This document shows, one piece after another, positions 21,468 through 25,442 of a stretch of 64,000 bases of DNA (the first letter of the stretch is position 1; every line of letters starts with the position of its first letter). The notes beneath the pieces are model-generated. The model had not been told where the DNA came from. It searched no databases and saw nothing but the letters and a program-made list of their open reading frames with translations. The stretch is from the sequence record PQ249397; one strand, given 5' to 3'. Made by a program: the position numbers and the translations under genes. The DNA is from Escherichia phage Pu-Krd-SF3.

Positions 21468-22358
21468 ATGTCAGTAGTAATTAATAATGTCAATGCAGTA
21501 ATTAAATCATTAGTTAATAAAAAAATGATGAATGAATGGACTGTACTTCGCCGTGGAGAGCCAGATAAATTTTTTCATAGATTTAACCCAACTTTGGATT
21601 TGAATGTTATCGACAAAGATGTTCATGCAGAAATTTTAGATAAGTTTAAAGTTGATATTGGATTTGGATTAGAAAAACATCTACAGCGAACAAACGGGTC
21701 TGGAATGAGTTTATCTAATCGTATCATGAAAGCCCTTAATAAAATTGGAGCGTTGTCTCGCATTAATGCGAGTGAAATCCTTCGTAATTATAATAAAGGA
21801 TATGACCTTTATGGTCGACTAATGCCAAAATTATCATTCGATCAAATGATTGCGGATTTGTGGAAAAATCAACGACGATTATTAGCATTAGGCGCTCGAT
21901 TAGCTAAAGGTCTAGATAAACAAATGATTTTTAAGACCAATAATACAGAAGACCTTAAATGCTTTAAATTTAGTATTCGCGGAGATGATTATTACATCAG
22001 AGCTTGCTCTACAGATTATGTTAATATGGGACATCATCTCTGTTTAGCTTTTGAAGTTTTAAAAGAAGCTGGAACATTAGAATATACGTCTGGTGCTAAA
22101 TGCCCGATTGGTTCAAATTGCATTTTGATTTATCGCCCGAATGAATCCAGTTCAACTACATTGCCTACAAAACCTGTACCAGTTCGTAGTAACGAAAAAC
22201 ATTCTGAACAAATTGATTATTTTAATAAGCAGATTGAAGAGCTGAATATTTCTATTCAACAGTATGATGATGAAATTTTCAGACTATCTGGATTGAGTAG
22301 TAAAGCTAAATCTGAGCGTGAAAAGTTAATTAAAATCGTTGATTTACTTAAATCTTAA
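21468..22358 (+). CDS. member 1 of a four-gene tandem paralogue family; C-terminal coiled coil
   Basis: ATG 21468 after gaggaaaat; shares motifs with the next three genes (W/F-x2-Q…L-x2-A-S/R-K/R-L-x-G-D; L-x-A-F-x2-L/M-D/E-x-V) and a C-terminal heptad region. Confidence 0.65.
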   Translation: MSVVINNVNAVIKSLVNKKMMNEWTVLRRGEPDKFFHRFNPTLDLNVIDKDVHAEILDKFKVDIGFGLEKHLQRTNGSGMSLSNRIMKALNKIGALSRINASEILRNYNKGYDLYGRLMPKLSFDQMIADLWKNQRRLLALGARLAKGLDKQMIFKTNNTEDLKCFKFSIRGDDYYIRACSTDYVNMGHHLCLAFEVLKEAGTLEYTSGAKCPIGSNCILIYRPNESSSTTLPTKPVPVRSNEKHSEQIDYFNKQIEELNISIQQYDDEIFRLSGLSSKAKSEREKLIKIVDLLKS

Positions 22359-22366
22359 GGAATACC

Positions 22367-23401
22367 ATGAAAACTCGTTCTCAAATTGAAGATATGGTTC
22401 GTAACGCTAGCGATACTCGTGATGTTATGACATTTTTGTGTGAAAATAATTTAGACCTTGATAAAATTAATCGTGCTATTCATCACTTTAAATATCTGAA
22501 TAGCAGCGAATGGGTGCGTAATTTTAGTAAAGCAGGGTATATTACGCAAATGACTGCTCGTGAACAGCTCACCGATTTCTGTAAAACTATTGATTATAAA
22601 AATCCTCTATTTGTTCAAGGCGTTGGTCAAAGTAAGGTCGATTTATCATCTGGATTTTTCAATCCAAATCATTATCGTATTGAATGGAGATTTATTGCTC
22701 TGATCCGTAGACAATTAAAGCAAATTTTGTCGACGGCTAGTCGATTAAAAGGTTCTGACATTAACTTAAAGAACCTGAAATTTGATGGTTATACTCTTCA
22801 GATGGAAGTAAGACCATTAAAAGAAAATAACAGAACTGCACGAATTAGCTTTAAACCTAATACAAAAAATTCTCTTTCAATTTGCGAATGCCTTAAATCG
22901 CAGTTGACAGAAGCATTTAAGTATATGGATGTTGTTGCCGCTGTTCAGTCTAAGATTTCACAACATTTCGAACGATTTAAATTAGACACAACAACATATG
23001 AACTTGATATGATCGTTTCATTTAAATATGAATTTTTGAGAAAGGACGAAGTCCCGCAAGAAAAAAAGCAAGAAGTGCAAGATAACTTAAATTTAAATTT
23101 AAATTTATCCAATTACTTATCAAACGATCCTAAATTTTGGATGTATAGTTCAGGTAATAAGGATGCATGGAAATTCAATAAAGTGAATTTTCTTCCTGAT
23201 GAAAATCCGAGTCTTAAACCTGTTGAAAAATGGCATGCAGATGCGATTGAAAAGTCTATCAAGGCAGTAGATGATGAACTCGTTAAAGCAACTAATGAAG
23301 TGTTAGAAGCTGAAAAGATGCTAGAAAAAGCTCAAGAAAAAGTCAAAAATCTCACGAAGCAACGTTCTAAACTGAACAATGCACTAAATGCACTGAACTA
23401 G
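22367..23401 (+). CDS. member 2 of the tandem paralogue family (344 aa)
   Basis: ORF track; conserved internal motifs and C-terminal coiled coil (…LEAEKMLEKAQEKVKNLTKQRSKLNNALNALN). Confidence 0.65.
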   Translation: MKTRSQIEDMVRNASDTRDVMTFLCENNLDLDKINRAIHHFKYLNSSEWVRNFSKAGYITQMTAREQLTDFCKTIDYKNPLFVQGVGQSKVDLSSGFFNPNHYRIEWRFIALIRRQLKQILSTASRLKGSDINLKNLKFDGYTLQMEVRPLKENNRTARISFKPNTKNSLSICECLKSQLTEAFKYMDVVAAVQSKISQHFERFKLDTTTYELDMIVSFKYEFLRKDEVPQEKKQEVQDNLNLNLNLSNYLSNDPKFWMYSSGNKDAWKFNKVNFLPDENPSLKPVEKWHADAIEKSIKAVDDELVKATNEVLEAEKMLEKAQEKVKNLTKQRSKLNNALNALN

Positions 23402-23430
23402 TTTACTTTACCACAGGGATGTGGTATAAT
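23401..23430 (+). promoter_or_regulatory. T4-type early promoter (GTTTAC … tgGTATAAT)
   Basis: GTTTACtttaccacagggatgtgGTATAATgtt between paralogues 2 and 3. Confidence 0.55.
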
Positions 23431-23458
23431 GTTCTTATTTTCTACTGAGGAGATTAAT

Positions 23459-24460
23459 ATGACTCGTAACGAATATATCAAATCATTCAATAGCGTTATT
23501 GATGATAAAGCTATACCGATGTTTGGCCAAAATAGCGTTCTTTCTATTATCAATCAATGGCTCAATAGTGTTGATGCAGGTATTGTTTCTTCTACTAAAT
23601 TTATTCATGAAATTCGTAAAATTTCTAGTCGTGTAGATAAAGATGTTATCAAGAAAACCTTTAAAGAGTCTCGTCTTCTTTCATATTTGGTTAATCGGGA
23701 TATTCTTGGTAATTTTGGGAAAGAAATTAAACGAACCAAAGATGTAGTAGGATATAATTGGTTCGGTGATGTTAATACTTATCATCTTAATACTAAAGAA
23801 GACCCTGAGAATATTTTTACTCGTCGTTGGGTTAGTGAATTTAGGAGTTTTACGAAGCAAATTCTAAAATCAGCTTCTAAATTATGTTATGGCGATTATC
23901 GTCAAATTCATCCCTTAGCTGATGATATGATTATAGCAGAAGAATATGAGCTTGATAAAAACAAAGTAGCTATTTTTATTAATTACAGATTTTTTACACC
24001 AGAAACTAACCAAAGGAATATTAATAAATTTTTCTCAATTGCTAGCACTATAACTCGTCAATTAGAAACCGCATTACTTTGTATGGAAACAGTAGAAAAT
24101 ATTCATACGTATCCTTTTAAGAATATATGCGGTTGGGAAGGATACAAAATTGTAGTTAGTCTTCGTGAAGTGAAATGTGCTTATTCACCGACTGATAAAG
24201 AAATTTACCAACAAAAATGTGATGAAATTGTGAATATTCCTAAAGAAGAAACTACACTTGAGGAACTAATGGATAATCTTGATGATTCGCCTGAACCGGT
24301 AGAAATTCGTCCAGAAGTTATTGCACTAGAAAAAGCTTATAAAGAAGTTCTAGAAATTTCTAATAAAGCGCAGAAAGAATATGAGAAGGCTAAAAGGATT
24401 TGGGAAGAATCTGTTAATCGCCTTGATCGTCTTGAACAAGCTTTACAGTTAATTAAGTAA
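23459..24460 (+). CDS. member 3 of the tandem paralogue family (333 aa)
   Basis: ATG 23459 after gaggag; conserved motifs; C-terminal coiled coil. Confidence 0.65.
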   Translation: MTRNEYIKSFNSVIDDKAIPMFGQNSVLSIINQWLNSVDAGIVSSTKFIHEIRKISSRVDKDVIKKTFKESRLLSYLVNRDILGNFGKEIKRTKDVVGYNWFGDVNTYHLNTKEDPENIFTRRWVSEFRSFTKQILKSASKLCYGDYRQIHPLADDMIIAEEYELDKNKVAIFINYRFFTPETNQRNINKFFSIASTITRQLETALLCMETVENIHTYPFKNICGWEGYKIVVSLREVKCAYSPTDKEIYQQKCDEIVNIPKEETTLEELMDNLDDSPEPVEIRPEVIALEKAYKEVLEISNKAQKEYEKAKRIWEESVNRLDRLEQALQLIK

Positions 24461-24512
24461 TTTAAAGCCAAGGATGGCTCGGAGTATAAATCATTAACCA
24501 AGTGAGAAGAAC

Positions 24513-25442
24513 ATGAAAACTCGTAAACATTATATTGATTATTTTGACAGTCTTATTACTAAACATCGTAATTATCAGATCGGGCACAGAGCAGTAATCA
24601 ATAATATTCTTCGTGATTTCCTTCAATATGTTGGCCAGGAAAATCATATCTGTAAAGATACTCAAAACGCTTATTCTCATTCGTTAGGCAATTTGCTTCA
24701 ATGGTTTAAACGTTCTCGTCTGTTATCTTCTACTGTAGCTAGTGATAACATTAAAAACTTTATGAAGCCGAGCTTCATTAAATCTGCGACATCTATAACC
24801 GATTTGGTTGAATTTACTATTGTTAACGATGTTAAAAAGACCCATTTGGCTGATTGGTTATCTACCATTCCTGAAACTAAATTTGCTGATAAATTCGCTT
24901 GTCAATTCAATAACCAAGTGAATATGCTTTTTAAGCATGCTCGCAAACTATTTACCGCGGGTGATGACCGTACAAATACAGTTCATGTTAAGGATTGGGT
25001 TATTGCTGATGAAGTAACACACAAGCCGGGTGGTTCATCAGTATTAATTAATATCCAGGTTCCTTATTACTACTCACGTAATCTCGGCACCATGACAGCT
25101 AGAGAAATTAATAAGCATAACAAAACTGTTCGTTCGTTGTCTTATAAACTCTGCACGATGGTGGAGATGATGGACGTAGTGGAAATGTATGATGAAACCG
25201 AAGATAATGGTTCAATGTTATACAGTTCACGTATTCTAATTAAACTGAAGAATCCTAATACATATAAGCCAGTTGTAAAAGAACCTAAAATAGAAAAAGT
25301 TGATAACTTGAGCGAAGAACGTGAATATCTCAATGCTCGTTTGATTGAAGTTGAAGCCCAGATTGCCGAACACACCAAATTGTTAAAAGCTCTTAATGCA
25401 AAAGCAAATGGTTTACGTAATGCTATTGAGGTATTGAAATGA
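24513..25442 (+). CDS. member 4 of the tandem paralogue family (309 aa)
   Basis: ORF track; conserved motifs; C-terminal coiled coil (…[33 protein letters not shown]). Confidence 0.65.
   Translation: MKTRKHYIDYFDSLITKHRNYQIGHRAVINNILRDFLQYVGQENHICKDTQNAYSHSLGNLLQWFKRSRLLSSTVASDNIKNFMKPSFIKSATSITDLVEFTIVNDVKKTHLADWLSTIPETKFADKFACQFNNQVNMLFKHARKLFTAGDDRTNTVHVKDWVIADEVTHKPGGSSVLINIQVPYYYSRNLGTMTAREINKHNKTVRSLSYKLCTMVEMMDVVEMYDETEDNGSMLYSSRILIKLKNPNTYKPVVKEPKIEKVDNLSEEREYLNARLIEVEAQIAEHTKLLKALNAKANGLRNAIEVLK

Follow-up and report, generated by a model that had tools for sequence, protein, structure and literature searches.

Four adjacent nrdC.x genes of a Tequatrovirus appear to be diverged tandem paralogues that include the anti-Dsr1 factor nrdC.5

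Most early accessory genes of phage T4 have no assigned function, and nrdC.5, which counteracts the host defence protein Dsr1, has so far been an orphan factor. The DNA stretch considered here, 64,000 nucleotides of Escherichia phage Pu-Krd-SF3 (sequence record PQ249397; this whole stretch is referred to as the window), carries an orthologue of nrdC.5 as the second of four consecutive open reading frames (ORFs) on one strand, at positions 21468-25442. The question that this locus raises is whether the four genes are copies of one gene and, if so, whether the activity of nrdC.5 may extend to its neighbours. A preliminary description of the window had read the four as tandem, strongly diverged paralogues that share two internal motifs and end in a heptad-repeat segment after a proline-containing linker. 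All four reading frames are present, with lengths of 296, 344, 333 (343 from an upstream ATG) and 309 residues, and the profile comparisons presented below argue that they are homologous, deeply diverged tandem paralogues of a single gene.

The window phage is placed by its sequence in the genus Tequatrovirus; the 4-kb stretch is 100% identical at the DNA level to Escherichia phage Pu-Krd-SF4, and several hundred genomes of this genus match it at 90-95% identity. Records that follow T4 nomenclature name the four genes nrdC.6, nrdC.5, nrdC.4 and nrdC.3, and the gene order of the T4 reference, i.e., nrdC.7, nrdC.6, nrdC.5, nrdC.4, nrdC.3, nrdC.2, nrdC.1 and nrdC, is the same here. The nrdC.6 product is 98% identical to that of T4 over the unshifted part, and the nrdC.5 product is 93% identical to T4 nrdC.5 over 97% of its length, at the same place in the gene order. 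The Pfam model DUF7235 matches nrdC.5 with 406.7 bits (cut-off 30) over profile positions 1-307 of 307; the other three ORFs (nrdC.6, nrdC.4 and nrdC.3) are not matched by this model, the local copy of Pfam recognizing nrdC.5 only. Among the PHROG families, phrog_2257 is matched by nrdC.6 (E=1e-150) and phrog_1435 by both nrdC.4 (E=3.6e-166) and nrdC.3 (E=2.1e-115), and homologues of nrdC.4 and nrdC.6 carry precomputed assignments to PF26897 and PF26899, respectively. The start of nrdC.4 is placed at 23459, because of a GAGGAG Shine-Dalgarno sequence and because this start agrees with the T4 annotation and with the start of the PHROG profile; the alternative ATG at 23429 (343-residue product) sits within the TATAAT -10 box of the promoter. 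Many deposited T4-like genomes (hundreds of GenBank records) call nrdC.3-nrdC.6 and neighbouring nrdC.x genes “thioredoxin”. This label is wrong and seems to have been taken over from the gene name; a thioredoxin-like match was found for none of the four proteins.

In pairwise BLASTP comparisons only nrdC.4 and nrdC.3 are significantly similar (E=2.7e-9, 26% identity over 226 residues), all remaining pairs of the four having E>0.02. More distant relationships were addressed using family profiles, built from the collected homologues of each family together with the syntenic regions of other genera and compared by hhalign; the loci of relatives were found by tblastn on a phage collection and from annotated regions. 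The families are linked by a set of single-copy relatives, denoted family S, in Pectobacterium phage PM2, Edwardsiella phage PEi20, Enterobacter phage IME523 and Citrobacter phage Merlin. A Foldseek search with the AlphaFold2 (AF2) model of nrdC.6 led to uncharacterized proteins of 304-335 residues in other T4-like phages, three of which are encoded by single-copy genes directly upstream of an nrdC.2-like gene, in PM2 (Mosugukvirus), IME523 (Kanagawavirus) and Merlin (Moonvirus); the equivalent gene of PEi20 (Kanagawavirus) was added by tblastn with the PM2 protein. Family S aligns with nrdC.6 at P=2.9e-9 (158 columns), with nrdC.5 at P=1.9e-9 (209 columns) and with a merged nrdC.4+nrdC.3 profile at P=2.8e-5. 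The nrdC.4 and nrdC.3 profiles align with each other at P=5e-14, and nrdC.5 aligns with nrdC.4 at P=2.4e-4 over 169 collinear columns and with the merged nrdC.4+nrdC.3 profile at P=2.9e-7 over 138 columns, in the core only.

To rule out a bias from the coiled-coil segments, the comparison was repeated after removal of the C-terminal helix. In this core-only form all six family pairs gave P values between 3e-6 and 8e-3, collinear over motif 1 (e.g., 3.3e-6 for nrdC.5 versus nrdC.4/3 and 5.7e-5 for nrdC.6 versus S), and all six are lower than the best value, P=0.013, found in 40 decoy comparisons with ten unrelated neighbouring gene families. The C-terminal 70 residues by themselves aligned weakly (best value 7e-4, for nrdC.5 versus nrdC.3), better than reversed-sequence controls, a result that is not decisive. 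Iterative jackhmmer searches of a database of 905 local ORFs, started from nrdC.6 and from nrdC.5, both pulled in members of family S, and a search with the PM2 member, PM2_092, recruited all 118 nrdC.6 members; in none of these searches was a decoy recruited. The Foldseek searches with the nrdC.6 and nrdC.5 models have three matches in common, i.e., PM2_092, fHe-Yen9-01 gp111 and Merlin gp91. These comparisons join the four proteins, and with them PF26899, DUF7235/PF23882, PF26897 and the single-copy genes, into one superfamily with a common architecture. The relatedness proposed in the preliminary description is upheld at the level of profiles, also for helix-free cores, and in BLASTP for one pair only. 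The genes themselves are known T4 ORFs; their four-way paralogy appears to be new and unrecorded.

One sequence required particular care. P0161 (299 residues; on contigs of up to 167 kb) is the product of a natural deletion that takes out nrdC.4; it joins nrdC.5, from about residue 147, with the part of nrdC.3 that starts at the motif-1 helix. If left in the alignments this chimera produces false homology signals. An early, strong hhalign match between nrdC.5 and nrdC.3 was rejected as an artefact of its presence in the nrdC.5 alignment; P0161 was removed from that alignment, and a first jackhmmer run was dropped for the same cause.

The motif patterns as originally written match none of the four proteins. 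When loosened, motif 1 (A[SR][KR]L-x1-4-G-x0-1-D) is found in nrdC.5, nrdC.4 and nrdC.3 and is absent from the other plus-strand ORFs of at least 100 residues (71 examined), nrdC.6 having the variant GARLAKGLD, while loosened motif 2 is present in all four. The motif 1 columns of nrdC.6 are invariant among 48 family members. In the AF2 model of nrdC.6 (predicted local distance difference test score, pLDDT, 77.7) the motif-1 and motif-2 helices span residues 124-145 and 187-200; in that of nrdC.5 they span residues 105-127 and 169-185, and the core and the C-terminal helix have pLDDT values of 70-90. Structure prediction, one of the checks proposed earlier, gives the same order of elements around the motifs in both models: a helical N-terminus, the motif-1 helix, a β-hairpin, the motif-2 helix, a β-hairpin, a disordered linker ending in KPV and long C-terminal helices (Table 1). 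The predicted common plan thus comprises a variable helical N-terminus, an α-ββ-α-ββ core with both motifs, a disordered linker that ends in [KE]PV and an amphipathic C-terminal helix of 45-58 residues. In this plan the first core helix would carry A-[SR]-[KR]-L...G-D and the second L-x2-[AM]-[FLV]-x2-[LM]-[DE]-x-V.

The C-terminal segments agree with what had been described, i.e., a [KE]PV linker is followed by heptad windows in all four proteins, and AF2 predicts helices there in nrdC.6 and nrdC.5. Heptad scoring found coiled-coil-like windows at all four C-termini. The score exceeds that of shuffled sequences in nrdC.6 (fraction of shuffles reaching it 0.003) and in nrdC.5 (score 0.90; fraction 0.007); in nrdC.4 the top window lies in the core, with the C-terminal windows also above the cut-off of 0.6, and nrdC.3 is borderline, a fraction of 0.07 of the shuffles reaching its score. 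In every one of the orthologous families, conservation is highest in the C-terminal helix (for nrdC.6, 65% versus 33-43% for the N-terminus and core), which suggests that this helix is under constraint for oligomerization or docking. The nrdC.5 linker shows 72% conservation among close relatives, versus 91-94% elsewhere in the protein.

Table 1. Genes, motifs, C-terminal segments and promoters of the nrdC.6-nrdC.3 array (window positions; motifs, helices and promoters are predicted features)
Feature	Positions	Strand	Details
nrdC.6 orthologue (paralogue A)	21468-22358	+	296 aa (amino acids); phrog_2257, PF26899
nrdC.5 orthologue (paralogue B)	22367-23401	+	344 aa; DUF7235/PF23882, phrog_2351
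nrdC.4 orthologue (paralogue C)	23459-24460	+	333 aa; GAGGAG Shine-Dalgarno; phrog_1435, PF26897
nrdC.3 orthologue (paralogue D)	24513-25442	+	309 aa; phrog_1435
Motif 1 helix, nrdC.6	21861-21917	+	WKNQRRLLALGARLAKGLD, aa 132-150; aligns with motif 1 of the S and nrdC.5 families
Motif 2 helix, nrdC.6	22038-22070	+	LCLAFEVLKEA, aa 191-201; model helix 187-200
Motif 1 helix, nrdC.5	22703-22759	+	IRRQLKQILSTASRLKGSD, aa 113-131; within model helix 105-127
Motif 2 helix, nrdC.5	22904-22936	+	LTEAFKYMDVV, aa 180-190
Motif 1, nrdC.4	23849-23896	+	FTKQILKSASKLCYGD; alignment, motif scan
Motif 2, nrdC.4	24062-24094	+	LETALLCMETV; alignment, motif scan
Motif 1, nrdC.3	24894-24968	+	FACQFNNQVNMLFKHARKLFTAGDD; motif scan
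Motif 2, nrdC.3	25149-25181	+	LCTMVEMMDVV; motif scan
C-terminal amphipathic helices, nrdC.6	22194-22352	+	aa 243-295, after KPV at aa 235; model helices 243-272, 278-295
Disordered, indel-rich acidic linker, nrdC.5	23051-23209	+	aa 229-281; pLDDT <50
C-terminal 58-residue helix, nrdC.5	23222-23395	+	aa 286-343, after KPV at aa 284; pLDDT 74-91
C-terminal heptad segment, nrdC.4	24302-24457	+	after EPV; heptad scoring
C-terminal heptad segment, nrdC.3	25287-25439	+	after KPV at aa 252; heptad scoring
MotA-box-like middle promoter before nrdC.7	21000-21023	+	GCTTTA-12 nt (nucleotides)-TATAAT, spacer CCAAGGATGG; read from sequence
Early promoter of nrdC.4	23402-23430	+	T4-type GTTTAC-17-(TG)GTATAAT; spacer hairpin 23409-23426
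Decayed promoter homologue before nrdC.3	24462-24490	+	TTTAAA/GCCAAGGATGGC hairpin/GGAG/TATAAA; spacing TTTAAA-18-TATAAA

The number of copies differs among the genera of T4-like phages. Kanagawavirus, Moonvirus and Mosugukvirus have one copy, directly upstream of nrdC.2; Mosigvirus has three (nrdC.6-, nrdC.5- and nrdC.3-type), as do Dhakavirus and Gaprivervirus (nrdC.6-, nrdC.5- and nrdC.4-type), and Tequatrovirus has four. The copies are always adjacent and in the same orientation, between nrdC.8/9 and nrdC.2. Tandem amplification followed by divergence, as had been suggested for the array, fits this distribution together with the profile homology of all copies.

The array has also diverged more than its surroundings. 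When Tequatrovirus is compared with Mosigvirus, identity is 32% for nrdC.6 and 24-25% for nrdC.5, versus 79-90% for the flanking genes nrdC.10, nrdC.8, nrdC and 49; within Tequatrovirus, nrdC.5 and nrdC.4 are 88-93% identical, versus 98-100% for flanking genes. The nrdC.3 gene occurs as two allele classes, about 61% identical, in Tequatroviruses that are otherwise 93-100% identical. The allele of the window is nearer to Mosigvirus (77-85%) than to T4 (61%), which suggests that the nrdC.3-nrdC.2 segment was exchanged by recombination between genera. The nrdC.2 gene is likewise unusually variable (66-89%; segment 24513-25750). Gene-wide ratios of nonsynonymous to synonymous substitution rates (dN/dS), determined pairwise according to Nei and Gojobori, are 0.05-0.17 for nrdC.6, 0.14-0.18 for nrdC.5, 0.26-0.34 for nrdC.4 and 0.10-0.32 for nrdC.3, above the values of most flanking genes (0-0.03 for nrdC and gene 49); the array genes are less constrained than nrdC and gene 49.

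Several natural variants of the array were observed. In a relative of phage vB_EcoM_G8 (locus L001, 5916-6948), nrdC.4 is broken up into a 193-residue and a 158-residue ORF and is probably a pseudogene. The nrdC.6 product of Shigella phage Sf25 (P0001, 378 residues) contains an in-frame tandem duplication of 82 residues (at about residues 177-258), which spans motif 2, the second hairpin and the linker. In the T4 record NC_000866 (L016, 8567-9394, minus strand) nrdC.6 is frameshifted after ...KQIEEL, which leaves a product of 275 residues and removes most of the C-terminal helices; the window and further T4-like phages, among them a second T4 record (OL964745), have the intact 296-residue form. 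Nothing in the window or in the fetched loci matched the N-terminal portions of two other chimeras, P0230 and P0236.

A function has been reported for nrdC.5. Dsr1 is a SIR2-domain defence protein of Escherichia coli ECOR17 that is neutralized by nrdC.5 of T4 (Srikant et al., eLife 2022, PMC9391042). A T4 clone from which nrdC.5 was lost in a deletion is viable, but fails to plate on ECOR17 and on MG1655 with dsr1, and deletion of dsr1 restores plating of this clone (PMC9391042). Plasmid-borne dsr1 protects MG1655, where infection is restored upon expression of nrdC.5 (PMC9391042). Because the second gene of the array is an orthologue of T4 nrdC.5 (93% identity, same position, Pfam score of 406.7 bits), it is expected to share this activity. 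Within the literature that could be searched, no later paper was found that gives the mechanism of nrdC.5 or mentions the paralogues. An exhaustive search of 1.8 billion proteins with a hidden Markov model of nrdC.5 returned only 13 cluster representatives; two full-length, distant representatives were placed by tblastn among Gaprivervirus, Dhakavirus and Tequatrovirus relatives, and the full-length ones that could be placed are all T4-like. Searches of NCBIfam and PADLOC, and a PDB sequence-profile search with nrdC.5, gave no useful match; no similarity to a known anti-defence protein or a solved structure was found. A role in defence or in superinfection exclusion was dropped as there was no PADLOC hit.

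Further genes of this kind are found near the array. The gene product gp49.2 of phage T6 inhibits the OLD defence nuclease (PMC13096335). The ORF at 26426-26773 has 89% protein identity to T4 DNA over 93% of its length, and we take it to be a gp49.2 homologue from its position in the order nrdC, 71-residue ORF, this ORF, 49.1-like ORF and pin-like ORF. Because gene 49.2 inhibits OLD, the neighbourhood of the array is rich in counter-defence genes (gene 49.2, pin). Right after gene 49, where the T4 reference has nrdD, lies a 245-residue ORF with a NUMOD3 motif (27863-28600), which is probably a homing-endonuclease-like gene.

The promoters of the array were read from the sequence. The promoter of nrdC.4 is of the consensus T4 early type, GTTTAC-17-TGGTATAAT, and has been retained in front of the nrdC.4 homologues of VR25, WG01 and YenP8. 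Two of the four genes had been credited with an early promoter of their own, which holds in part: nrdC.4 has a strong early promoter, while nrdC.3 has only a decayed homologue, whose Mosigvirus counterpart is intact in the alignment (GTTTAC...GGAGTATAAT). No promoter belonging to nrdC.6 or nrdC.5 itself was found in the window, and nrdC.7, nrdC.6 and nrdC.5 are probably transcribed together from the middle promoter at 21000-21023. The same MotA-box-like element lies directly upstream of nrdC.6 in VR25, WG01, ATK47 and HX01 (Mosig-, Dhaka- and Gaprivervirus). In the window the membrane-protein gene nrdC.7 (21053-21460) is located between this element and nrdC.6. Because the promoter that adjoins nrdC.6 in the other three genera precedes nrdC.7 here, it seems that in Tequatrovirus an insertion of nrdC.7 has separated nrdC.6 from this promoter. 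In PM2 and Merlin, genes annotated as nrdC.7-like are located on the nrdC side of the single-copy gene, i.e., opposite to the position of nrdC.7 in the window.

Between the -35 element (or MotA box) and the -10 element, a small spacer hairpin is found at 21008-21017, 23409-23426 and 24467-24478 as well as at 4062-4071, three of the four copies of the 64-kb window falling in the array. GGAG, the motif cleaved by RegB, frequently comes after its core, CCA-AGGA-TGG, and the outer stem covaries among phages (GCCA/TGGC, ACCA/TGGT, TCCA/TGGA and CCACA/TGTGG). The hairpin, which overlaps the next promoter, could serve to terminate or to process transcripts that read through.

Taking these observations as a whole, we consider it probable that the four accessory genes are diverged tandem paralogues whose products are oligomeric inhibitors of host immune proteins with diversified targets. 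In this model, four accessory genes that are apparently non-essential and have early- or middle-type promoters would descend from a single ancestral gene that is still present as one copy directly upstream of nrdC.2 in other Tevenvirinae genera. Members of the family would act as oligomers to inhibit immune proteins of the host, their N-terminal and core part providing target specificity and the C-terminal helix multimerization, and duplication and divergence would have given rise to paralogues directed against different defence systems or against different alleles of them. As nrdC.6, nrdC.4 and nrdC.3 belong to one superfamily with nrdC.5, they are candidate counter-defence genes; that they share such a function is possible, though somewhat short of probable. 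A still more tentative proposal is that of a phage-specific superfamily of modular immune inhibitors with a conserved oligomerization helix and a fast-diverging recognition domain, where each T4 paralogue disables a different defence and nrdC.6, nrdC.4 and nrdC.3 would be three undiscovered anti-defence proteins.

A number of points weigh against this model. Direct comparison of nrdC.6 with nrdC.5 (P=2.4e-3) and with nrdC.4/3 (P=0.007) gives weak scores, and nrdC.6 is joined to the other genes mainly by transitivity through the single-copy family S. The overall pLDDT of the nrdC.5 model is moderate (65.8), its N-terminal 55 residues being poorly modelled, and the same architecture is presumed for nrdC.4 and nrdC.3 by alignment, as the models are those of nrdC.6 and nrdC.5. 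The coiled-coil oligomer that the C-terminal helix most likely forms is a prediction. Anti-defence activity has been demonstrated for nrdC.5 alone of the four, and its action on Dsr1 could be indirect. Finally, a gene-wide dN/dS above 1, i.e., positive selection, was not seen for any of the four genes. The arms-race or host-range interpretation given in the preliminary description is supported by the published nrdC.5 experiment, the nearby gene 49.2 and the high divergence; the dN/dS values that were to accompany it, 0.05-0.34 across the array, are higher than those of most flanking genes and remain below 1.

This last observation would also be expected if the genes had nothing to do with immunity and played a part in host takeover or housekeeping instead (e.g., modulation of a host enzyme or of the nucleoid), the effect of nrdC.5 on Dsr1 being indirect, e.g., by hiding the Dsr1 trigger. 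A dN/dS below 1 indicates that an activity is conserved under purifying selection, the papers searched give no mechanism for nrdC.5, Dsr1 has been described as poorly characterized, and a resemblance to known anti-defence proteins or solved structures was not detected in the searches described above. However, the genes appear to be dispensable on laboratory hosts, and phage without nrdC.5 has a plating defect that depends on the host and disappears upon deletion of dsr1. Furthermore, the array varies far more in divergence and copy number than the conserved genes that flank it, and other inhibitors, i.e., gene 49.2 (anti-OLD) and pin, are found in the neighbourhood. On balance, such a role is unlikely.

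Plasmid-expressed nrdC.5 alone restored plating of the deletion clone on dsr1 cells, an observation that bears on a second alternative, in which the four proteins are subunits of one hetero-oligomer that is held together by the C-terminal helices and acts jointly on one target. Such an assembly would be in line with four adjacent genes on one strand that are, judging from the promoter layout, partly co-transcribed, and with a long amphipathic C-terminal helix in every member. It is difficult to reconcile with a copy number of one to four among genera, with natural variants in which nrdC.4 is split or deleted and with the T4 reference nrdC.6, which is frameshifted before the terminal helix, and we regard it as decidedly improbable. 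Finally, that nrdC.4 and nrdC.3 are the only true paralogues, nrdC.6 and nrdC.5 being unrelated proteins of similar size and helical content that likewise end in a low-complexity coiled coil, would explain the single significant BLASTP pair, the three separate families of Pfam and PHROGs and the direct nrdC.6 versus nrdC.4/3 score of only P=0.007, coiled coils being a known source of spurious similarity, but it is very hard to maintain given that the helix-free core profiles are still significant and collinear, with all six pairs below the best decoy, that the single-copy family (and no decoy) is recruited by both nrdC.6 and nrdC.5, that the motifs fall on the same helices in both AF2 models and that these models share Foldseek matches.

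As to early expression and dispensability on permissive hosts, which may be expected of anti-defence genes, the array has predicted early- and middle-type promoters at 23402-23430 and 21000-21023, a viable T4 clone lacking nrdC.5 has been reported, and natural variants occur in which nrdC.4 is lost or fused. If the neighbours of nrdC.5 are ancient copies of this gene, nrdC.6, nrdC.4 and nrdC.3 become testable counter-defence candidates. A two-motif core combined with an oligomerization helix would provide a defined architecture for mutational work, and a locus with one, three or four copies constitutes a natural series for studies of how phages diversify an inhibitor scaffold.

A comparison with known systems places the array as follows. 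The second gene is the orthologue, at the same position, of T4 NrdC.5 (DUF7235, PF23882), which was published as a lone uncharacterized gene, its neighbours not being described as relatives, whereas here it is part of an array of paralogues. The fourth and third genes and the first gene are direct orthologues of T4 NrdC.3/NrdC.4 and NrdC.6, respectively; these uncharacterized families are kept apart from DUF7235 in databases, and are joined to it here by profile comparison with the single-copy genes. The DSAD1 protein of SPbeta-like Bacillus phages is likewise a phage protein that neutralizes a defence-associated sirtuin NADase, but the targets differ (DSR2 versus Dsr1), the phage lineage is a different one, and in a comparison by sequence only, no similarity to nrdC.5 was detected. 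Other T4 clusters, such as the dmd-tifA-adfA “anti-TA island” and the anti-OLD gp49.2, resemble the array as proposed here in that they group small, early and dispensable genes, each directed against one host defence, and they undergo amplification and deletion during adaptation. They are, however, composed of unrelated genes, whereas the nrdC.6-nrdC.3 array would consist of ancient, fixed duplicates of one gene, which now have less than 26% identity.

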